DNA of 64,000 nt from the NCBI GenBank assembly GCA_050309605.1, contig JBNRMN010000002.1, positions 1 to 64,000 of the forward strand. The letters are read 5' to 3'. Position numbers and translations under genes: made by a program. Source of the stretch: Anaerohalosphaeraceae bacterium. GTDB lineage: Bacteria > Planctomycetota > Phycisphaerae > Sedimentisphaerales > Anaerohalosphaeraceae. Positions 24,807 to 36,092 of this stretch are shown one piece after another. The notes beneath the pieces are model-generated. The model was not told where the DNA came from. It worked only from the letters and a program-made list of their open reading frames with translations, and made no database searches. Each line of letters begins with the position of its first letter. Position 1 is the first letter of the stretch.

Positions 24807-27695
24807 ATGATATTTCCGAGAACCGGCATTATTGCATCCTTTTTTCTGATTTTTTCGATGGGTGCATTGGGGGATGTGCAATGGCTGCGTTATCGAACCA
24901 GTGAGGATGTGGGCCAGGAGGTGGGCGCCTCGGTGAACCGGTATTATCGCAGTTTTGAGTCGCAGCGTCCGGAGCACGTGCGGTGTCCGGAATTCAAATC
25001 CGACAGTCCCTTGTTTATTAAATGGAACACCCCGATGGACGGGCAGGGTTTTCGGTGGATCGCGTTGGATCGTTCGACGCCGTATGGACAATATGATCTG
25101 TTGTATATCGATTCAAACGGCGACGGGCATCTGGATGACGAGAAGCCGTATCAGGGGCGGCGAAGCGATCAGTATCGTATGGCCTTTCATCCGTTTCCTG
25201 TCTATCTGACCGGCGAGGACGGGCCGATTACCTATCATCTGGCGTGCCAATTCTACAGCTATGATGAGCGCAGTCGATATTTGATGATGTCTTCGGGCGG
25301 TTATTATGAAGGGACGGTGTTGATCGGCGGCGAACCGGTTGGGTGTGTTCTGGTGGATACCAACGGCAACGGGACGTTTGACGATACGGCTGAGGACTTT
25401 AACGCCGACCGGATTTTGCTGGGTGAAGGACAAAATCGGCGGGAGTATTTTGTGGGTCGCTATCTGGATTATGAAGGGACGTTGTATCGGCTTCAGATTG
25501 CACGCGACGGGGCGTTTGTGTCTCTTGCGGCTGCGCCCGACGTATCGTTTGGGGTCGTGCAGGTTCCCGAAGGTTTGACGAAATTCTCGGCCGGGGGTGT
25601 TAATGGAATGTATCACATGTCGCCGGAAAACGGGCACGTGCGCCTGCCGGAAGGGACGTATCGGGTGTATCAATGGGAGTTGGTTCGTCAGGACAAGGGG
25701 CAGGACTGGACCTTGCGGGGAAGCAATTTTCCGCGTCAGCAGAGTTTTACGGTCAGCGCCGATACGCCGGCGAGGGTGGCTGTCGGCGAGCCGGTATTTT
25801 CGCGGCTGTCGGTTTCCGAACGACAGGGAATCTATTCGATCAATCAGGAACTTCGGGGCAAGATGAACGAGCAGGTCAGTGTGCTGCGAAACGGTCGGCA
25901 GCCGCCGGCGCCGAAGGTGCATATTCGCAGCCAAACGGGCGCGTATGACCGGACGTTTTCGCTGGAGTATGGGTGAGGCGGTACCTGTTCGCTCTCGTGG
26001 CGAGAGCCGAGGAATATTGAGCGTCCGTATGTTATAACGCCGCTGGTCGAGGGGCCGTTTGATATACGGCAGATGCGCTATGTTTTTAAGCCGCTGCATC
26101 GTTCGGTACCGGTCGTCGGGCCGTGGATTGCCGAGGTTGCCGCCGATGAGGCGCTGCGCGTGGTGGTTGACGGTACGGGGCTGGTTGACCGTAACGGCGA
26201 CCGTTTGCCGGAGCATTTGACGCAAACCGAGACGCAGTGGATTGTATCGCAAGAGGAGGTGGGAGAAGGGCTTGTCTTTGATTTCGGCCAAGCGGTCGAG
26301 TTGGAAACGCTTCAAATCTGGAATTACAATGAGCCGGGCTATACATCGCGCGGCGTCGCGCAGGCGGATGTATCGGTCTGGACGTCTGAAGGCGACTGGA
26401 AGACGGTTTTGCGCGGCGCGTCGCTGCAAGAAGCCGAAGGGACAGACCAGTATGATGAGCCGACCCTGCTGAGGCTTGTCCCGACGCGGGCCGAGAAGGT
26501 GCGGCTGAGCAATCTTAAGCCGTTTGCCGATGAGGGGTTTGTCGGTTTGTCGGCGATCCGGTTTTATGAGAAGGCCACGTTGGCGGCCTGCAATCCGCAG
26601 CCGCCGGGAGGGGCATCGCTGCCGTTCAGTTCTCAGGCGACGTTGTTCTGGACGCCGGGTAAAGAGGCGGCTGCGTATGATGTGTACGCCGGAATCGACG
26701 GTCAAGAGCCGGCGTTTTTGGGTCGCATTGCGGAATCTCAGGTCAAACTGGTCGGGCTGGTCGGCGAACGAACATATCGGTGGCGCATTGATGCGGTACA
26801 AACGAATGGTACCGTTACGCAAGGGCCGCTGTGGTCGTTTTCGGTTGAGCCGGGCCGCTGTGTGGCGCATTGGCCGTTTGATGAACACGAAGGCCAAACG
26901 GCTGCCGATTCGCTCGGTCAGGCGGCCGGTGTGTTGAGAGGTGAACCGGCGTGGCTGATTGACGGCGGACGGATTGACGGGGCCATCGAGCTGGACGGTC
27001 AGCGTGATTTTGTCGAAACGCCGGCGCTGCATTTGAACACTGATACGCTGACGATGACTGTCTGGCTGCGGGCTGATCCGCCGCCGAATCAACTGACCGG
27101 CGTGATGTTCTGCCGCACGCCTTCGACGGTGGCGGGAATTCACTTGAGCGGTACGAATCTGCGGTATCACTGGAATGATCTTCCGGAAAGTTATAATTGG
27201 GACAGCGGACTGAGTCTTCCGACGGATGGCAGGTGGGTGTTTGCCGCCCTGACGGTTACGCCGGAGTCGGCCAGGCTGTACCTGCATCATGACGGTGAGC
27301 TGAAGACAGCGGAAAATCGTCTCGTTCATTCCGTTCAGCCCTTTGACGGGCCGTTGACATTGGGATGTGACGGCGGGATCAATGACCGCAATTTCAAAGG
27401 TCGTATGGATGATGCGCGGGTGTATAATTATGCGCTGACTGCTGAACAGATTCTTGCACTGGCCGAGGGACGTGAGCCGGCGGATTACGCTTCAGATGCG
27501 GCGCCGTCGCTGGCGCTGGCCGGTGCGGAATTGATCCAGCGCGACGCGGATTTGAAGGCGATCGCCGAGGCTCGGCAGCGCGAGCGACAAGCGGCTCCGC
27601 CGGCCGAGGTGCGCCGACGCAATATCCTGCCGGTGCTGGTGATTGTGGCGTTGATTGCCGCCGCGGCGGTGGTCTTGGGCAGGAAGTCCGCATAA
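24807..27695 (+). CDS. Candidate exported selenoprotein (962 aa, Sec390) with galactose-binding-like, Fn3-like and LamG domains and a C-terminal TM anchor
   Basis: ORFs 24807-25976 and 26073-27695 are in one frame, separated only by TGA 25974-25976 (YG-U-GGTCSLSWREP); SECIS-like hairpin follows; signal peptide; LamG motifs VAHWPFDE and FKGRMDDARVYNYALT. Confidence 0.8.
25991..26007 (+). promoter_or_regulatory. Bacterial SECIS-like hairpin 1
   Basis: GCTCTCG-TGG-CGAGAGC, after a 14-nt spacer from the TGA. Confidence 0.8.
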
Positions 27696-27819
27696 ACCGC
27701 AGAATAAGCAGTGAAACGTCAGATTTCACAAACTAAACAGAGAACGTTCTATTATGCGGCACGATCCTTCCGGCCGTATTGAAGGGGGATCGTGCCCGTG
27801 CTGCAAGGGAGGTTTCAGG

Positions 27820-30258
27820 ATGCGTCAAGTCATAAGCAGAAACGGGTGGACGTGGGTTATGGTTGTGTCGGCGGTACTCGGTGCGGCTGAGGCGAAAACG
27901 CTCAAAGGCACGGTCACCGGTCCTGACGGCGCACCGGTGGACGGCGCGGCGGTGAGTGTCTATGCGGCCCAGCTTAAGATTGAATCGCTTGCTTTTGAGG
28001 TTCAGCCGGTCGGTCAGACGACGACGTGTTCGTCGGGACTGTTTTCGGTGGAGACGGATGTTCAGATGCTGTCCAGCGAGGGAGGCTGGCTGTTTTTTGC
28101 GGAAAAGCCGGGCCTGTCAATCGGTTTTTCTTTGCTGCAAGACTTCTCGGAGGACAGCACGTCGCTTCAACTGACCGCGCCGCAGACATTGGCCGGACGG
28201 ATTGAGGATATTCACGGTAATGCGGTTGCCGGGGCCGGGGTGCGTCTGCTGGTTTTATCGGTTCCGGGTGAGCGTGAGTGCTATACGCTGGGGCTTGAGC
28301 CGATCCCGTTTTTTGCTGCGGAAACGGATGCGCAGGGGCGATTTGAATTCGCGAATCTGCCGGAAAACTGTACGGCTGAACTCTTGGCCAAAAAGGCGGG
28401 ACTGGCGACCTTTCATACGCTGACGTCCAACATCAATCCGCAAACGGGGCTGAGTTTTTCGGTCGGGCAGGAAGATATTGTCCTGACCTTATCCGAGGCG
28501 TGTCGAATCAGCGGTATAGTGACCGACCAGGACAATCAGCCGGTGGGTCATGTGCAGATTGTGGCGATTGAAGCGGACCATCCGCAGATCGGGATTTTTA
28601 CCCGGAATCTAACACGCGCCGAGGCCGACGGGACATTCAGCTTCGGCGGCCTGTCGGCCGGGTCATATCGACTCAGTGTGATTGATGCGGACTGGATGTC
28701 CGAGCCGGTTACCGTGGAGGTCAAGACGGAGGTGGGTGTGCCGCTGAAGGTCGTCAAGGGCAGCCTGCTGACAGTGACGGTGGTGGACGGCGTTTCCAAT
28801 CAGCCGGTTGGATCGGCTCAAGTCAATGTGAGTCCGCAGGATGAACGCAGCAGTTTCTCGTTCGGCAGGGGCACGACCGATCCGGAGGGCAAAGTGCAAA
28901 GTCGCGTTTTGCCGGGGACGTATAATGTGTACGTCAGTGCGCCCGGATATCGCAGCAGCCGCAGTGTCGCGGCGGTCGTGGAAGACGGCAAGACCAATGA
29001 GATCACGATTATGCTGGGCGCAACGGCCCGCATTGCCGGAACGGTTACCGATTCCGACGGGCGGCCCGTTGCAGGGGCACAAGTCTTTGTGCTCCCCTTT
29101 TCGGGTAATGTGCGGGACGCCATACAGACAACCGACGAAAAGGGGCACTTTACCCTTGGGTGGGATCCGGAGCAGATCAGTTGGGTACAGGGTGAATTCT
29201 ATCTTGCCGCGATTGACAAAAGCAGCAACCGTGCGGTGATTGAGCCGATTGACGCGGACACCACGGACATCCAGCTTACCCTTCAGCCCGGTCTGACGAT
29301 CACCGGCAAAGTGACCGGCCCGGACGGCGAATCTCTGGCCGGGGCGGGGGTGAATGTGCAGTTTCGCGGCTCAAACTGGTCTTCGACGCTTCAGGGATAC
29401 ACCGCCCAAACCGACCGGGACGGGATGTATCGTATTGCCGCCATACCGCCGCAGCAGCGGTATTACTTATTCATCAGTGGGCCGACCGGTTATGGCACCG
29501 GGTCGGTTAATCTGGAGTTACCGACGGACGGCGATGTGGTTACCGCATCCGATACGGTGCTGAAATTGGCCAATCTGTCGGTATCCGGCAAGGTGGTTGA
29601 TGAGGACGGCAATCCGCTGGAGGGGGTGAATCTGCATTGTTACGGCTCCGGCCAGCCCAGCGCCCAGGCGCGAACCGGCACGGATGGGACATTTGTGTTT
29701 GATGCGGTCTGCCAAGGCGATCTGTCCATTCAGGCCAATTATCAAAAAGACGGCGAGTATATGTATTCCAATGTCCGAACCGAAGGCGGAGCGCAGGAGG
29801 TCACGATCGTCCTGGGCCCGCAAAGCTCCGGCGGCGGCTATGTGCCGCGACGGCCGGCCCCGCTGGTCGGCAAGCTGCTGCCGGATTTGTCGGGGTACGG
29901 CATTGAGCTTGAGAGGCAGGCCGGGCCGGTGCTGGTATGCGTCTGGGACTGGCGGCAGCGGCCGAGCCGTTATATGGTGCGGCAACTGGCCGCGCGGGCC
30001 GGTGCGCTGGCCGAGCGGTCGGTACAGGTCGTGCTGCTCAATGGCGAATCGACGGAACGTGAGCCGCTCGATGCGTGGCTGGCTGATTTTGACATTCCGT
30101 TCGTCTGCGGCGTTATCGCCATCGACCCCGATAATTCTCGATTTAATCTCGGCGTCCAGGCGATGCCGTGGCTGATTTTAACCGATGGTCAGCGCAAGGT
30201 CATTGCTGAAGGGTTTGCGCTGTCCGAATTGACTGATAAGCTGGGCGGACTGCAATAA
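27820..30258 (+). CDS. Exported protein with carboxypeptidase-regulatory-like repeats and a C-terminal thioredoxin-like domain lacking CxxC
   Basis: Repeated ISGxVTDxDGxPVAGAxV...TDxxGxF units; C-terminal LVGKLLPDL...VCVWDWRQRPSR...GVQAMPWLILTD. Confidence 0.75.
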   Translation: MRQVISRNGWTWVMVVSAVLGAAEAKTLKGTVTGPDGAPVDGAAVSVYAAQLKIESLAFEVQPVGQTTTCSSGLFSVETDVQMLSSEGGWLFFAEKPGLSIGFSLLQDFSEDSTSLQLTAPQTLAGRIEDIHGNAVAGAGVRLLVLSVPGERECYTLGLEPIPFFAAETDAQGRFEFANLPENCTAELLAKKAGLATFHTLTSNINPQTGLSFSVGQEDIVLTLSEACRISGIVTDQDNQPVGHVQIVAIEADHPQIGIFTRNLTRAEADGTFSFGGLSAGSYRLSVIDADWMSEPVTVEVKTEVGVPLKVVKGSLLTVTVVDGVSNQPVGSAQVNVSPQDERSSFSFGRGTTDPEGKVQSRVLPGTYNVYVSAPGYRSSRSVAAVVEDGKTNEITIMLGATARIAGTVTDSDGRPVAGAQVFVLPFSGNVRDAIQTTDEKGHFTLGWDPEQISWVQGEFYLAAIDKSSNRAVIEPIDADTTDIQLTLQPGLTITGKVTGPDGESLAGAGVNVQFRGSNWSSTLQGYTAQTDRDGMYRIAAIPPQQRYYLFISGPTGYGTGSVNLELPTDGDVVTASDTVLKLANLSVSGKVVDEDGNPLEGVNLHCYGSGQPSAQARTGTDGTFVFDAVCQGDLSIQANYQKDGEYMYSNVRTEGGAQEVTIVLGPQSSGGGYVPRRPAPLVGKLLPDLSGYGIELERQAGPVLVCVWDWRQRPSRYMVRQLAARAGALAERSVQVVLLNGESTEREPLDAWLADFDIPFVCGVIAIDPDNSRFNLGVQAMPWLILTDGQRKVIAEGFALSELTDKLGGLQ

Positions 30259-30320
30259 GACGACAGCACAGCAGGGGTGTTTTATTCGGCTGTTGATGTG
30301 ATTATGTTCAGGGAGTTGAG

Positions 30321-31475
30321 ATGAGACAATGGGTTGTTTTATGGGTCGCTTTCGCGGCGGCCGGGGCGATGGCGCTGACGGTTTCGGAGCAGACGCTTGA
30401 TCTGTTTGGTACGTCCGAGCCGGAGGATCCGAATGCCGTGGTTCTCGCTGATCCGCCCTACACCGTCAAGGTGTCGCGCACGGGCAAAGTGCTGAATGTG
30501 GCGATTGAGACCGCGTCGCGTGAGCAGGCGGAATTGCTGTTCGGCGCGCATTATGAACAGTCGCCGAGACTGTCGATTTATAAGGGCGATTTGCTGCTGG
30601 CATCGGGGCAGTTCGCCTTTGGGTGAGGCGGCGTCTGTGCGTACTCGTGGCGAGTACCGATGTATGCTTATGGCACATTCAGAATCGAGACGGAAGTGCC
30701 GACCGGCGAAGGCGAACCGATCCGCGTCGAGCCGACGACATATTATTTCAATCCGCTGTATCATGCGTCGGGGTTTGTCTATTTCGTTCCGGTTGCGGCG
30801 GCGTTTTTGTTCCTGAAAGAAAACCGGCGACCGAAGGCGTTTTTGATTCTGGCGCCAATGCTGCTGGTGATGGGGATGTGGAGAGGGTTTTCCGGAGTGA
30901 TGCATTTTCCTGAAGAGGCGGTCAGCATGTTAAATTCAGTGGTTATGGCCTTGCTGGCGGGCCTTTCCGTTGTCTGGCTTCTGGGTGAGCGGATCGGCCA
31001 TCGCCATCGGTTGGCAACGACTTTTCTGGCGGGCGGTATTATGCTGGGGTGCTGTGCCCTGATGCTGGTAGAAATCTTTTCCTCGGACTATGTGTTTCAA
31101 ATCGCATTTTTCGGTGTGATCAGTGCGGCGGTTATCCTGTCGGGCTTACTTGTCGGCGGTTTCCTGAGCCGGAAGCGATTTGGCCCGGTGCGTTTTTTGC
31201 TATGGTTCGGTGTGGGCATTTTATCGGCGACTTTTGTGCTGTTTTTTGTTTATTATGCGATTTTGACATTTTCCTATTTCAGTGCAGATTTGTTCTGGAT
31301 GTTGTTGGGCGTGATGCTGACTTATGCCGCAATCTATTGGGTAGGCGTCTTGCCGTTTCTGGTGCTGTTTTTCGTCAATGACTTTTGGCGGCAGCGGTTT
31401 ACGGCGGTCATGGGATTGGGCACTGTAGCCGTATCCGAGACGGAAGCTCACGAGGCGTTTACGTCTGACTTCTGA
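30321..31475 (+). CDS. Candidate membrane selenoprotein (384 aa, Sec102)
   Basis: ORFs 30321-30626 and 30660-31475 are in one frame across TGA 30624-30626 (FG-U-GGVCAYSWRVP); SECIS-like hairpin; signal peptide plus about 7 TMs. Confidence 0.8.
30641..30657 (+). promoter_or_regulatory. Bacterial SECIS-like hairpin 2
   Basis: GTACTCG-TGG-CGAGTAC, after a 14-nt spacer; compensatory changes relative to hairpin 1. Confidence 0.8.
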
Positions 31476-32323
31476 TCGCCCAGTTCCGTCGGTTCGTCCA
31501 GCAGGGTGGCCGGCTTCAGTGCGCCGGGGCCGCATTTTGTGCATTCCAGACAGCGGATGCAGTGGTCGGCGTTGGGGGTCTTATCGGGCTGGACGCCGTA
31601 GCGGCACAGGGTTCGACAGCGGCCGCATTGGGTGCATTGGTGTTCTTCCAGGTTCAGTGTAAACAGAGAAAACCGATTGAAAAAGCCGAAAATCGCACCC
31701 AGCGGGCACAGAATTCGACACCACGGGCGGATGGTAAAAAAGATGGCGGCGACAAAGACGACGATGATGGTGATTTTGAGGGTGTTGGGCCAGGGGATTA
31801 CGTCGCCGGCGACGGCGGCGGAAACCACATCGGGCAGGGCCTTTTCCAGCCCGCCGGCCGGGCAGATACGGCAGATAAACAGCGGGTGGCCTTCGCCGAA
31901 AAAGTAGGGGACGGCCAGGACTGTCCCGATCAGTACGACATAGCGAAAATGCCCCATCCAGCGGGGGATTTTGAAACGCGGCGCGGGGACCTTGGCCGCG
32001 ACATCCTGAAGCAGGCCGAACGGACACATCCAGCCGCACACCAGCGAGCCGAGCATCACGCCGAACGCGATCAGCAGTCCCACGGCAAAATACGGAAACA
32101 GGTGCAGCGCACTGAATTGGGCAATGACGCCGATGGGGCAGCCGAACAAGGCCAGCGGACAGGCATAGCAATGGAACACCGGTCCGCACACGGTGTGCAT
32201 CCGCAACCCGAACGGATCGAGCCAGACCAGCAAAAAACCCGTCTGTACCCACAGCCGATGCGGCAGGAGTTTTTTGAAAAACCGCGACAGCGGCGATGAC
32301 GATGAATTGACCGTGGACACCAC
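31448..32323 (-). CDS. Membrane 4Fe-4S binding protein (NapH/MauN-like)
   Basis: CYACP, CGWMCPFG, CRICPAG, CRILCPLG and two CxxCxxCxxxC motifs. Confidence 0.88.
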   Translation of the reverse strand: MVSTVNSSSSPLSRFFKKLLPHRLWVQTGFLLVWLDPFGLRMHTVCGPVFHCYACPLALFGCPIGVIAQFSALHLFPYFAVGLLIAFGVMLGSLVCGWMCPFGLLQDVAAKVPAPRFKIPRWMGHFRYVVLIGTVLAVPYFFGEGHPLFICRICPAGGLEKALPDVVSAAVAGDVIPWPNTLKITIIVVFVAAIFFTIRPWCRILCPLGAIFGFFNRFSLFTLNLEEHQCTQCGRCRTLCRYGVQPDKTPNADHCIRCLECTKCGPGALKPATLLDEPTELGDQKSDVNAS

Positions 32324-32327
32324 AGCC
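32309..32327 (-). promoter_or_regulatory. Bacterial SECIS-like hairpin 3
   Basis: GGCTGTGG-TGT-CCACGGTC (8 bp with 2 G-U pairs); loop starts 22 nt after TGA 32343-32341. Confidence 0.6.
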
Positions 32328-32331
32328 TCCT

Positions 32332-32577
32332 TTAACTGCCTCAGGTCGGGCAGGCTTCGGGGGGCTTGCCCGTGTAGGTTAACTGCAATCGACCGTCGTC
32401 GGTACGCTCCAGCCCGCCGATGCTGACTTCCTTCATCAGCCGCGTTTCGGGCGTGGCCAACCCTTTGTCGTTGTGTTCCGAAAAGACCGGCTGCGTGTGA
32501 AACTTCAGCCCGAAGGCCATCAGGCCGGCGCCGATAAACAGCAGCACAAATACGATTTTGATCTTGAAGGACTCCAT
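32332..32577 (-). CDS. Small single-TM candidate selenoprotein ending in C-P-T-U-G-S
   Basis: Track ORF ends ACPT-TGA; readthrough gives a CxxU motif, then GS-TAA; SECIS-like hairpin at matching spacing. Confidence 0.65.
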
Positions 32578-32670
32578 AATATTTACGCTATCATAGCACA
32601 CCGGAATGTATTTGTAAACAGCGTTTGGCGTACAAAATGATTGGCGGCCAGTCAGGATCGGCAGCCAAAT

Positions 32671-32723: not shown

Positions 32724-33734
32724 TTATGTTGTCGGTTTGATTTCCAGCGGATGGGCGTTTTGATATTGTTCCTGCATTCGACTGGTGGTGATATGCGTAT
32801 AAATCTGGGTTGTCGATAACGATTGGTGTCCCAGCAGTTCCTGAACGCTTCGCAGGTCGGCACCGTTGTTGAGCATATGGGTCGCGAAGCTGTGCCGCAG
32901 CGTGTGCGGGCTGATGTTCGGGTCCAGACCCGCCTCGATGAGGTATTTGTCCATTTTTCGGCGGACGCTGCGGGCACTCATCCGTTTGCCGTGCTTGTTG
33001 GCAAACAGCACTTTACTGTCAAAGCCCGGATCATTGGCCAGACGGCGGCTGCGAAACTCCAGATAATGTTGAATGCTCTGCAGCGCTGTCAGACCAATCG
33101 GGCAAATCCGTTCTTTTTTGCCTTTGCCGCGGACGTGAATCACTTCGCCGAGGAAATCCACATCTTCCATATTCAGGGCCACCAGTTCGCTGACCCGCAT
33201 CCCCGTGCTGTAGAGTACTTCCATCATCGCTCGGTCGCGGGCACCCAGCCATGTGGTGGCCGGCGGTGTGTTCAGCAGCCGCTGAACCTGCTCGTATTCA
33301 AGAAACTTGGGCAGTTTTTTATCTTGTTTGGGTGTTTTGATATTGGTGGCCGGATTGCTGGACACATAATTGCGCTTGACGAGAAATTTGTAAAAGCTGC
33401 GCACCGTGGCCAGTTTGCGTGCGGTGGTGGATTTGGAATAGGCGTGGGAGTTCAATTCCGCCAGAAAACGGCGTATCGTATTGACGTCCGCAGCCTGCAG
33501 CAGGGTATCGATCTGGGTTTGTGCCTGGGTCTGTGTTTGTGTCGCGACCGAACCGTTCTCGGCGGCCCAGGGATTTTGTCCGTTGTCGTCGGGGCCGTGC
33601 GCGTCGGCGTGGGCGGCCAGAAAGGCGCTGTACTGCTCCAGGTCAGCCTCATAACACTTGGCGGTATGCTCGGAAAAATGTTTTTCAAATTTCAGATAAT
33701 TGACAAAATCCTGGATAATCGCCGAGTTGTCCAT
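32724..33734 (-). CDS. xerC: Tyrosine recombinase XerC
   Basis: LYSTGMRVSEL, GKGKKER, SPHTLRHSFATHML, LLGHQSLSTTQIYTH. Confidence 0.9.
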   Translation of the reverse strand: MDNSAIIQDFVNYLKFEKHFSEHTAKCYEADLEQYSAFLAAHADAHGPDDNGQNPWAAENGSVATQTQTQAQTQIDTLLQAADVNTIRRFLAELNSHAYSKSTTARKLATVRSFYKFLVKRNYVSSNPATNIKTPKQDKKLPKFLEYEQVQRLLNTPPATTWLGARDRAMMEVLYSTGMRVSELVALNMEDVDFLGEVIHVRGKGKKERICPIGLTALQSIQHYLEFRSRRLANDPGFDSKVLFANKHGKRMSARSVRRKMDKYLIEAGLDPNISPHTLRHSFATHMLNNGADLRSVQELLGHQSLSTTQIYTHITTSRMQEQYQNAHPLEIKPTT

Positions 33735-34317: not shown

Positions 34318-35262
34318 TCAGGGAATCTTAAAAAATTCCGTGCCTGACCGTATATCGGACACAATTTGGCCTGTTTTCAAAAGGGCGTCCAGCAGCGGAC
34401 GCACTTGATCGGGGCTGAGGGACAGCCCGATGCCGATATCCTTCAATGAACAGGGATGACGACGGAGCATGGCAAGAACCGCTTCGGTGTTGCCGGTGAG
34501 GTCTGCCGAAGCGGCAGGGCCTTGATGACGACTGAAATCAGCAATGATTTCGGCTTGCGGATGCAGTTTTGGGGCGATCTGCTCCAATTCCTGAGGCGAA
34601 ACCGGCAGCGCCTCGGCGTGGGTGGTCGGACGCGCAGCGGTGTTGAGCTGGACTTTGTCGGGGCGGATTTTTGCGATGAGTCGGGCGATGTTTCGGATAC
34701 GGTCCTCGTCGGTGTTGATTCCCCGACAGAAAAAAACCTCCAGCCAGATTTGGCCGGCGTATTCGTCGCGAAACCGGCATAAACCATTGATAAAAAGCTC
34801 GAAATTCAGGTCGGGATGCGGGTTGTTCAGGCGGCGAAAGGTCGCTTCATCGCCGGCATCGAGCGAGGGCAGTACGACATCCGCCTTGGCGCAGTCCCGC
34901 CGAACCTCCGGCTGATACAGCAGTGTGCCGTTGGTGATGACGGCGGCGGGTATGTCGGTCAGCTTTTTGATGCCGTCGATGATGACGCCCAGTTCACTGT
35001 GCAGGGTCGGCTCGCCGGAACCGCTGAGGGTGATGTAGTCGGCGGACAGTCCCTCGTCTAACCGTTGGCGCAATTCAGTCAGCACCGCATCGGTCGGCAC
35101 ATAGACTTTGCGCTCCAGCGTCAGCGGGGCGTCTTTGCCCAGTTGGCAATAGAGGCAGTTTTGGGTGCAGGTCTTCATCGGGACGATGTCCAGCCCCAGG
35201 CTTTGGCCCAGACGACGCGAACGAACAGGCCCGAACAGATAGTGATAGGTTGACTTGGCCAT
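34318..35262 (-). CDS. Radical SAM protein
   Basis: GPVRSRRLGQSLG, CTQNCLYC, SGSGEPTL. Confidence 0.9.
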   Translation of the reverse strand: MAKSTYHYLFGPVRSRRLGQSLGLDIVPMKTCTQNCLYCQLGKDAPLTLERKVYVPTDAVLTELRQRLDEGLSADYITLSGSGEPTLHSELGVIIDGIKKLTDIPAAVITNGTLLYQPEVRRDCAKADVVLPSLDAGDEATFRRLNNPHPDLNFELFINGLCRFRDEYAGQIWLEVFFCRGINTDEDRIRNIARLIAKIRPDKVQLNTAARPTTHAEALPVSPQELEQIAPKLHPQAEIIADFSRHQGPAASADLTGNTEAVLAMLRRHPCSLKDIGIGLSLSPDQVRPLLDALLKTGQIVSDIRSGTEFFKIP

Positions 35263-36092
35263 TATGATTTTGGATTGCGAATGAGTTGATGGATACGGCC
35301 GCACATCGAGACCAGTGATTCCACTTCGTCCAGCGGGAGCATACAGGCCGCATCGCAGAGGGCATTGGCCGGGTCGGGGTGGATTTCCATAAACAAGGCG
35401 TTGGCGCCTGCCGCCGTTGCAGCGCGGGCCAATATCGGGGCCATATCGGGCGTGCCGGCACTGGCCGTGCCCAAACCGCCCGGCCGCTGGGTGCTGTGTG
35501 TGGCGTCAAAGACGACCGGACAGCCGATTTGCTGCATCAGCGGGATGGCAGTCATATCGTTGACATTGCGGTTGTAGCCGAAAAACGTGCCCCGTTCGGT
35601 CAAGAGAATCTTGTGGTTTCCGGTGGAACGTACCTTTTGGACGCAGTTTTTCATCTCTTCGGGGCTGACGAACTGACCTTTTTTGATATTGACGGGCTTT
35701 TGTGTCCGGCCGCAGGCGACCAGCAAGTCAGTTTGACGACATAAAAACGCCGGAATCTGAAGACAATCGACCACCGAGCCGGCGGCCTCGGCCTGGGCCG
35801 GTTCGTGGACATCGGTCAGGACGGGCAGGCCCGTTTTTGAGTGCACGTCATTCAGTATGGCAAGGCCTTTTTCCAGGCCAGGCCCGCGAAAACTGTCAAT
35901 ACTTGAACGATTGGCCTTGTCGAAACTGGCCTTGAAGATCACGCCGACACCGGTGCGCTCCCGAATGCCGAGTAGCGTCTCGGCGATCCGCAGGCACACA
36001 TCGCGGCTTTCTATCACGCACGGTCCGGCAATGATAAACAGCGGCTCATTGAGACCGACCTTGATTTGTCCAATGTGAAAGGATGAATTCAT
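35262..36092 (-). CDS. kdsA: KDO-8-phosphate synthase
   Basis: IAGPCVIES, KASFDKANRSS, QIPAFLCRQTDL, NIKKGQF. Confidence 0.95.
   Translation of the reverse strand: MNSSFHIGQIKVGLNEPLFIIAGPCVIESRDVCLRIAETLLGIRERTGVGVIFKASFDKANRSSIDSFRGPGLEKGLAILNDVHSKTGLPVLTDVHEPAQAEAAGSVVDCLQIPAFLCRQTDLLVACGRTQKPVNIKKGQFVSPEEMKNCVQKVRSTGNHKILLTERGTFFGYNRNVNDMTAIPLMQQIGCPVVFDATHSTQRPGGLGTASAGTPDMAPILARAATAAGANALFMEIHPDPANALCDAACMLPLDEVESLVSMCGRIHQLIRNPKS

Follow-up and report, generated by a model that had tools for sequence, protein, structure and literature searches.

Three candidate selenoproteins of uncatalogued families and a possible envelope redox relay in an Anaerohalosphaeraceae bacterium

Introduction

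Three genes of an Anaerohalosphaeraceae bacterium, all located between positions 24,807 and 32,577 of the stretch of DNA analysed here, are interrupted by an in-frame TGA codon. This raises the question of whether these codons terminate translation or encode selenocysteine (Sec, or U) and, if they encode Sec, whether the resulting proteins work together. The window, meaning this whole stretch of DNA, comprises positions 1 to 64,000 of the forward strand of contig JBNRMN010000002.1 (assembly GCA_050309605.1). The host genome (labelled G000) is 99.7% complete and is distributed over 97 contigs. An earlier examination of the letters of this DNA, hereafter called the sequence-only reading, had proposed that each TGA is followed by a hairpin resembling a selenocysteine insertion sequence (SECIS), and that the genes form an envelope selenium-redox system. 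On balance, we consider it probable that the locus encodes three selenoproteins of uncatalogued families, which would form an extracytoplasmic selenol/thiol relay fed by a membrane polyferredoxin.

Bacterial selenoproteins are mostly cytoplasmic thioredoxin-fold or molybdopterin enzymes, and forms carrying Cys outnumber those carrying Sec. To our knowledge, selenium use has hardly been studied in this phylum.

Results and discussion

Two split proteins share a domain that contains the TGA codon

The TGA codons are located at 25974 (+), 30624 (+) and 32341-32343 (-), each beside a Cys codon as the sequence-only reading had described. The first (25974-25976) ends an open reading frame (ORF) at 24807-25976, and another ORF (26073-27695) lies in the same frame 99 nucleotides (nt) on. 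Readthrough yields protein A, which has 962 amino acids (aa) and reads ...LEYG-U-GGTCSLSWREP... around the TGA. The second codon (30624-30626) bridges ORFs 30321-30626 and 30660-31475 to give protein B, which has 384 aa and reads ...FAFG-U-GGVCAYSWRVP... at the corresponding site. The third is found in a small protein encoded on the minus strand, where ...PPEACPT-U-GS is followed by TAA. Public gene calls end these proteins at the TGA, which is the fragmentation that had been expected of standard annotation. The same gene calls favour an alternative explanation in which the TGAs are plain stops, the ORFs on either side belong to separate genes, and the hairpins have a regulatory role or reflect a coincidence of the coding sequence.

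Proteins A and B both carry a beta-sandwich domain of about 110 aa, here called the U-domain, with the pattern G-U-G-G-x-C-x-x-S-W-R-x-P. Its conservation was examined by tblastn in 41 related genomes, using A (residues 1-498), B and the small protein as queries. These genomes are non-independent samples, and the linkage counts derived from them carry no statistic. The check for homology on both sides of the TGA, which had been suggested together with the sequence-only reading, gave a positive result for both A and B. All 22 matches to A, which come from 12 of the 41 genomes, contain exactly one TGA. Matches to B come from the same 12 relatives; 18 of these 20 matches contain exactly one TGA, and the remaining two stop short of the site. 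The 22 distinct sites in relatives conform to G-U-[GS]-G-x-C-x-x-[ST]-W-[RP]-x-P. In a broader sample of 401 genomes from the phylum (U-domain matches counted at E<=1e-5), the domain is found in 30 genomes and one TGA is present in 62 of 72 matches, such that the Sec form is here in the majority; two of the 10 matches without a TGA fail to span the column. The most conserved residues of the U-domain are those that flank the TGA.

A U-domain profile (20 domains, 112 positions) was also searched against 1.84 billion protein representatives, and 1040 clusters (50% identity) contain the domain at E<=0.001. Among the best 150 of these clusters, 95 end exactly one residue before the U column, and these are gene calls cut at the TGA. 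There are 53 domains in the same best 150 clusters that span the column, and 12 of them carry Cys at the Sec position, so that Cys-form homologues of the A/B domain do exist; the others have G (9), S (7), L (7) or rarer residues. Most residues replacing Sec are one base change away from TGA. In three of the Cys forms, a fused AhpC-TSA/Redoxin domain with the motif C-x-C-x-x-C follows at the C-terminus. The retention of the frame across the TGA in all three sets of genomic matches, the concentration of conserved residues around it, and the 12 domains with Cys in its place all stand against termination at this codon. The U-domain TGA splits or truncates hundreds of gene models in public databases, and thus annotation pipelines could gain two or three family models.

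A separate observation concerns database proteins P0004, P0006, P0008, P0014, P0035 and P0070, in which G or W falls exactly at the Sec column. These residues could result from translation of TGA under code 25 or code 4, or could be real point mutations.

SECIS-like hairpins follow each TGA codon

The model quoted in PMC13188914 describes the bacterial SECIS as a stem-loop that has a G in the first two loop positions and is located 16-37 nt after the UGA. All three hairpins in the window fit this model, and the spacing given in the sequence-only reading is reproduced: a 3-nt loop, UGG or UGU, starts at the 22nd base after each TGA. The hairpins of A and B belong to the minimum-energy fold of their 60 nt. 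No Rfam family matches the window at gathering score. A 38-base degenerate pattern that sites 1 and 2 share has two occurrences in the window and none across 100 shuffles.

Scanning one genome per prokaryote species with the SECIS-bearing pattern gave at least 133 stretches. The contigs listed come mostly from Sedimentisphaerales, Phycisphaerae, Pirellulales, Planctomycetaceae, Brocadiaceae and Verrucomicrobiota, with single metagenome-assembled genomes (MAGs) of Hydrogenedentota and Acidobacteriota, and obvious chance matches fall in genomes of high guanine-plus-cytosine (GC) content. Family membership of these sites was set with a protein profile built from the part upstream of U only, because circularity with the hairpin was to be avoided. 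Among the matches listed, 82 of 136 distinct sites fit this upstream profile, and all seven stem pairs are formed in 79 of them, six pairs in two and four pairs in one, the last of which forms a hairpin with a 5-nt loop. The 54 profile-negative sites among the same listed matches include 21 with seven of seven pairs, mostly of a divergent 'M-P-F-G-U' subtype, and 33 others that have at most six pairs and are mostly chance-like.

In an alignment of 84 sequences, 99.1% of the cells pair and five of the seven stem pairs are changed on both sides. None of 500 shuffles reaches any of five covariation measures, and controls slid along the alignment pair at 20-57%. The compensating changes alter the encoded peptide, which reads S-L-S-W-R-E, S-Y-S-W-R-V, S-L-R-W-P-E or Y-L-W-Q-V. 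Because the peptide is rewritten in this manner, RNA pairing, and not the protein alone, constrains the stretch. These comparative data put the combination of TGA and hairpin far beyond chance.

A small gene ends within reach of a polyferredoxin start codon

The third TGA lies in an 81-aa protein whose gene precedes one for a NapH-like membrane polyferredoxin, which is the pairing of a C-x-x-U peptide with a polyferredoxin that the sequence-only reading had pointed out. The small protein is anchored by an N-terminal helix, and the basic residues ahead of this helix suggest that the tail is located outside. Its gene is matched in nine of the 41 relatives, all of which read C-[PA]-T-TGA followed by two codons and a stop. 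Six further representatives adjoin U-domain genes on named contigs, and two more, in genomes G034 and G027, were located via their NapH-like neighbour. Thus, all 17 loci have the arrangement C-x-T-TGA, two codons and stop, and none has TAA or TAG in place of the TGA. Database homologues of the protein are titled 'hypothetical proteins'. A further C-P-T-TGA-x-x-stop sequence at contig C89:26722 was dismissed as chance, given that it has no hairpin and no anchor.

With Sec three residues from the C-terminus, a SECIS must lie beyond the stop codon. The hairpin of the small gene is indeed located past the TAA, and it holds the GTG start codon (32321-32323) of the NapH-like gene. Between the small-gene stop and the SECIS loop (32309-32334, minus strand) there is a Shine-Dalgarno-like AGGAGG together with this GTG. 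The hairpin of the homologues also contains the start codon of the next gene, which falls within the 5' arm of the stem in 12 of them, and the NapH-like homologues start with M-[VA]-[AS]-[MT]. Minimum-energy folding recovers the hairpin at 13 of 15 loci, and the consensus fold of 15 homologues is again this hairpin, with three of eight pairs compensated. Because the NapH-like start codon is buried in the SECIS stem, decoding of the small Sec gene upstream and translation of the polyferredoxin are probably coupled. If this is true, selenium supply and SelB would govern production of the electron conduit, and the overlap offers a simple, testable case of selenium-linked translational coupling.

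The NapH-like protein scores 66.4 bits with TIGR02163, which does not reach the family cut-off of 213.05, and 49.4 bits with Pfam Fer4_5 (cut-off 22), and is thus a relative within the wider Fer4_5 group. There are 18 invariant Cys residues in an alignment of 13 sequences (49-81% identity), distributed over a C-x5-C-x2-C-P-x5-C-P cluster, three C-x(2,3)-C-P motifs and two C-terminal 4Fe-4S motifs. Hydrophobicity and charge lead us to place the N-terminus, the double 4Fe-4S domain and two C-x3-C-P motifs on the cytoplasmic side, and the four-Cys cluster and the C-x2-C-P motif on the outside. A complex prediction for the NapH-like and small proteins, made with the window's two sequences only, gave a score of 0.29 (mark 0.34), which speaks neither for nor against binding. 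The B and NapH-like genes are convergent and their 3' ends overlap by 28 nt (31448-31475). A terminator-like hairpin is present at 31511-31532 (+) inside the NapH-like coding region.

The genome encodes the Sec machinery

The sequence-only reading had called for a search of the genome for Sec machinery. Models for selA (550.6 bits), selB (323.6 bits), selD (374.7 bits) and tRNA-Sec (74.4 bits) all match above their curated cut-offs, and ARAGORN reports the last as tRNA-SeC with anticodon TCA. The selA and selB genes are adjacent on contig C34, and selD is on contig C64 with the tRNA-Sec gene about 600 nt downstream of it. The selD match (positions 2-310 of 311) lies within a stop-free 575-aa frame (C64:22338-23945), and selD may therefore be fused to another domain; selD itself makes no use of Sec.

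Sec is most commonly used in formate dehydrogenase. In the present genome, at 99.7% completeness, no alpha subunit of that enzyme was found, and thus this use is not the reason that the machinery is kept here. The U-domain and cluster genes may be that reason. A generic scan of the whole genome for TGA codons followed by hairpins gave 198 candidates, nearly all of which are noise.

Several points weigh against decoding the TGAs as Sec. The folding energies of the three 60-nt stretches are ordinary relative to shuffles (z = -0.36, +0.75 and -0.61), such that stability alone proves nothing, and the window's own third hairpin is absent from the minimum-energy fold. In the covariation alignment, the search pattern itself dictated columns 24-28 and 34-35. 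The small protein has only two sense codons beyond its TGA and would lose only three residues by stopping there; no Cys form was seen in the six of its 19 database homologues that were inspected, all of which end at C-P/S-T; and the hairpin doubles as coding sequence for the N-terminus of the next protein, which could in part explain why it is conserved. Given the short tail and the lack of a Cys form among the inspected homologues, the case for Sec in this protein is built on four features: a TGA that is conserved, a tail of constant length (two codons), the hairpin, and the joint occurrence with selA. The ordinary folding energies and the slight cost of stopping in the small protein are also what would be expected if the TGAs were plain stops. 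Against that explanation stand a stem that covaries at the cost of amino acid changes, the use of TGA followed by exactly two codons and a stop in 17 of 17 small genes, and the occurrence of these genes together with selA. We therefore uphold the assignment of all three TGAs as Sec codons with bacterial-type SECIS hairpins in a genome that has selA, selB, selD and tRNA-Sec. The comparative sequence evidence makes it almost certain that the TGAs of A and B encode Sec and very likely that the TGA of the small protein does so too. Termination at all of these codons is highly improbable as an explanation of the locus, and for A and B it is close to refuted.

Architecture of the U-domain proteins

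Protein A begins with a signal-like N-terminus and about 300 aa of beta-sandwich domains with D-x-N-G-D-G motifs, followed by the U-domain (approximately residues 329-433), which contains U390-G-G-T-C394. Beyond it are a weak discoidin-like region, a LamG domain and a C-terminal hydrophobic anchor. Pfam identifies Laminin_G_3 at 730-882, and a match to F5/8 type C is below threshold. The AlphaFold2 (AF2) model of residues 1-434 is an all-beta string of sandwiches with a mean predicted local distance difference test (pLDDT) value of 88.8. Protein B has a signal-like N-terminus, a U-domain (U102-G-G-V-C106) and about seven hydrophobic helices. The signal-like N-termini, read by eye, suggest that A, B and a neighbouring 834-aa protein are exported.

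The Sec and the Cys located four residues on (G-U-G-G-x-C) sit in a tight turn, and the next strand is the one whose codons form the hairpin. In fold searches the U-domain resembles FnIII/Ig-like structures, with a best Z of 9.4 to a cytokine receptor (root-mean-square deviation 2.8, 92 residues aligned). Searches with the U-domain and with residues 1-434 of A, the first 300 of which were barely probed, returned only generic beta-sandwich matches. The ESM Atlas gave no usable match for homologue P0015.

A Phycisphaerales MAG contig (L124, 8001-10888) carries three tandem U-domain genes at a spacing of exactly 1425 nt, each with a TGA and hairpin. Within the phylum sample there are as many as nine U-domain matches in one genome and eight in another. 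These tandem arrays and high copy numbers indicate that the family expands by tandem duplication. P0021, a relative of A without Sec or Cys, is fused at its N-terminus to a BlaR1/M56-type membrane peptidase-sensor region (H-E-L-A-H), which hints that some family members serve in signalling.

The chemistry of the U/C pair might not be that of a relay. Sco proteins bind copper through a C-x-x-x-C motif, and TlpA reduces the disulfide of these proteins. Perhaps U-x-x-x-C likewise binds a soft metal or metalloid such as copper or mercury, in which case the U-domain proteins would be envelope metal binders or chaperones and the thioredoxin-like and NapH-like parts would serve only to keep the site reduced. 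This idea gains from the Sco precedent, from the fusion of Cys-form U-domains to TlpA-type redoxin domains, and from the retention of the second Cys in many homologues without Sec. Weak structural matches to the periplasmic Fe/Cu-binding proteins HftA, Tp34 and P19 (Z 6.4-6.9) point in the same direction, but they are no better than the matches to dozens of unrelated beta sandwiches. Moreover, no conserved His or Met is located beside the U/C pair, and no conserved metal transporter or regulator is found near the cluster in the loci examined. We regard metal binding as distinctly unlikely.

Gene associations and a proposed electron relay

The 834-aa protein encoded between A and B has a signal-like N-terminus, seven CarboxypepD_reg repeats (Pfam) and, at about 29860-30255, a C-terminal thioredoxin-fold domain of the ResA/TlpA type. 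Pfam alone gave no match for this domain, and its profile matches ResA in the PDB (4nmu_A, E 8.5e-7; six more ResA entries, E 6e-4 to 1.3e-3) and TlpA (E 0.05). The description of this partner as thioredoxin-like and Cys-less holds: Q-R-P-S aligns with C-K-P-C of ResA, the residues Q, R, P, S and a further R are invariant among 13 homologues, and C-x-x-C is absent. Because both active-site Cys residues are replaced, the domain cannot work as a classical oxidoreductase.

The small and NapH-like genes are present in 11 of the 12 relatives with U-domains, mostly within 10 kb, and the twelfth genome is 77% complete. The pair is found no more than 8 kb from U-domain genes on contigs from Verrucomicrobia, Sedimentisphaerales, Brocadiaceae and Planctomycetaceae, and seven contigs have the repeat/ResA-like gene after an A-type gene. 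In the phylum sample, 20 genomes have the NapH-like gene (matches counted at E<=1e-40), and 13 of these are among the 30 with U-domains. The selA gene was found in 10 of the 41 relatives, of which nine are among the 12 with U-domains and one has no U-domain; the three U-domain relatives without a selA match are 76-83% complete. Thus, the three parts and selA recur together, and close by, across Planctomycetota and Verrucomicrobiota.

Next to selA in the host genome there is an 86-aa ORF (C34:83237-83392, minus strand, which corresponds to L001:970-1230, minus strand) that encodes the C-terminal half of a U-domain, reads ...MEYG-U-GSTCRYSWRVP... and has a perfect SECIS hairpin. It is located about 350 nt from the selA start on the opposite strand, and similar small U-domain ORFs adjoin selA in genomes G002, G012, G028 and G034. 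This ORF may be a remnant or a small selenoprotein.

In the relay that we propose, electrons from the cytoplasmic side or from the quinone pool would pass through the polyferredoxin to the outer face, and there the polyferredoxin would reduce the Cys-Sec pair that the small protein carries on its flexible C-terminal tail. The next step would be reduction, by this tail, of the U-x-x-x-C selenenylsulfide in the envelope U-domain proteins, which would then act on an envelope substrate. The proposal draws on motifs of redox type, on the fusion of Cys forms to redoxin domains, on the ResA-like neighbour and on analogies with DsbD and thioredoxin reductase, as well as on conserved neighbourhood and co-occurrence. 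Of the envelope selenium-redox system claimed by the sequence-only reading, the component genes and their linkage have stood up; their unity as one system has not acquired the same standing, and draws on neighbourhood, co-occurrence and analogy. We put the chance that the parts act as one redox relay slightly short of even.

Some observations speak against a single relay. The thioredoxin-like partner has no active-site Cys, and no redox protein was matched by the U-domain in fold searches. The membrane part of B has no Pfam match and no conserved Cys among 20 homologues, on which grounds a DsbD/CcdA/VKOR-like role considered for it was rejected. In the phylum sample, 17 genomes have a U-domain without the NapH-like gene and seven have the NapH-like gene without a U-domain. 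In addition, Sec-dependent genes could cluster near selA because they are inherited together and not because they function together.

The last two points are central to a different explanation, wherein the selenoproteins are real and belong to separate systems, such that the U-domain proteins and the small/NapH-like pair are merely inherited and lost as a block with selA and selB. The partial overlap in the phylum sample (13 genomes shared) fits this explanation, as does the location of selA 0.3-20 kb from U-domain genes in eight genomes and the partial U-domain ORF that adjoins selA here. However, the cluster is intact in the host genome even though it is on a different contig from selA and selB, and members of different classes and phyla have the same neighbours, at 33-70% identity. 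We consider separate systems unlikely, and continue to favour the selenol/thiol relay as a whole explanation.

A bolder and more doubtful extension of the relay is that an undescribed envelope Sec electron relay, in which the NapH-like protein drives a Sec-tailed shuttle that services a large family of surface beta-sandwich proteins, most of them with Sec, is the main reason that many Planctomycetota and Verrucomicrobiota keep the Sec machinery. This may be so, but we advance it only tentatively.

Features of the locus and flanking genes

The coordinates of the features are collected in Table 1. The cluster is flanked by a gene for a XerC/D-like tyrosine recombinase (32724-33734, minus strand), and a radical SAM gene is present at 34318-35304 (minus strand), whose best matches are TYW1/MoaA-like and far below the cut-offs, without a family-level match. 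Neither gene is a conserved neighbour in the loci examined.

Table 1. Predicted features of the locus, in window coordinates
Feature	Position	Strand	Evidence
Predicted selenoprotein A, 962 aa	24807..27695	+	translation; homologues with one TGA in 22/22 matches
Predicted Sec codon U390 of A	25974..25976	+	sequence; tblastn
Predicted SECIS of A, GCUCUCG-UGG-CGAGAGC, within codons S-L-S-W-R-E	25991..26007	+	sequence; fold; covariation
834-aa partner protein	27754..30258	+	Pfam; tblastn synteny; profile versus PDB
Predicted selenoprotein B, 384 aa	30321..31475	+	translation; homologues
Predicted Sec codon U102 of B	30624..30626	+	sequence; tblastn
Predicted SECIS of B, GUACUCG-UGG-CGAGUAC	30641..30657	+	sequence; fold; covariation
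NapH-like membrane polyferredoxin, 291 aa	31448..32323	-	TIGR02163; Pfam Fer4_5; alignment
SECIS-like hairpin of small gene, GGCUGUGG-UGU-CCACGGUC	32309..32327	-	sequence; consensus fold
Candidate small N-terminally anchored selenoprotein, 81 aa, C76-P-T-U79-G-S-stop	32332..32577	-	
Candidate Sec codon U79 of small protein	32341..32343	-	TGA kept at 17/17 loci
Promoter-like site TTTACA-17-TATGAT with TG, just upstream of small gene	32590..32618	-	consensus scan only

Comparison with known systems

None of the Pfam and NCBIfam models (June 2026, E<=0.01) matches the U-domain, B or the small protein. Similarly, none of the 119 selenoprotein families in the 2026 inventory (PMC13188914 Table 1) has these motifs or contexts. 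A full-text literature search found no paper on these families, although its coverage is incomplete and an earlier mention is possible. The sequence-only reading had left open whether the system is described; no curated family or catalogue entry was found, and the locus apparently contains new Sec families that are undescribed, with Sec in an exported Ig/FnIII-like domain, which is an unusual fold and location, and with an unusual SECIS placement.

DUF1573 is a small beta-rich domain found in Planctomycetota and other groups. Its 'UGC' selenoproteins (PF07610) and a UGC-containing TlpA family (both in PMC13188914 Table 1) resemble A and B in having Sec close to Cys. This identity was rejected, since neither protein matches PF07610 at E<=0.01 and the motif is G-U-G-G-x-C rather than U-G-C. 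The name 'hypothetical protein DG', which PMC12013277 gives to a protein from Desulfosediminicola with the motif GUxG, was considered and not adopted.

The 81-aa protein shares its U-x-x-stop layout with the UXX-star families NF041114 and NF041211, wherein Sec is three residues from the C-terminus (PMC13188914 Table 1). However, its motif is C-P-T-U instead of U-x-x-T or G-x-G-U, it is membrane-anchored, and its SECIS overlaps the start codon of the next gene. Because no NCBIfam model matches it at E<=0.01, it was not assigned to UXX-star.

The C-terminal domain of the 834-aa protein resembles ResA and TlpA by profile and differs from them by carrying Q-R-P-S in all 13 aligned homologues. The polyferredoxin resembles NapH, MauN and NosH (TIGR02163, Fer4_5) in its four hydrophobic helices, C-x3-C-P motifs and C-terminal double 4Fe-4S domain. 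Unlike these proteins, it has the additional invariant C-x5-C-x2-C-P-x5-C-P and C-x2-C-P motifs in loops predicted to face outward, and its partner is the Sec-tailed small protein rather than NapG or nitrate reductase genes.

In DsbD, a thioredoxin-fold domain and an electron conduit in the membrane serve a periplasmic Ig-fold domain that has a redox-active Cys pair. The locus parallels DsbD and ScsB in the U/C pair of an Ig/FnIII-like domain, in the fusion of Cys forms to redoxins, and in the membrane redox protein encoded alongside. In contrast to DsbD, there is no sequence match, and the structure matches listed are generic FnIII/Ig domains with no DsbD among them. Further differences are that the pair is U-x-x-x-C in a turn, that the local thioredoxin-like domain lacks C-x-x-C, and that the membrane partner is an iron-sulfur protein of the NapH type and not a CcdA/DsbD-type thiol transporter.

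In animal thioredoxin reductase, a C-terminal arm with Gly-Cys-Sec-Gly is believed to relay electrons between a buried centre and external substrates. The small protein likewise has a Cys/Sec pair on a flexible C-terminal tail, and the analogy lies in this tail mechanism. The two proteins are unrelated, the pair is C-x-x-U as opposed to adjacent Cys and Sec residues, and the tail belongs to a separate, small anchored protein.

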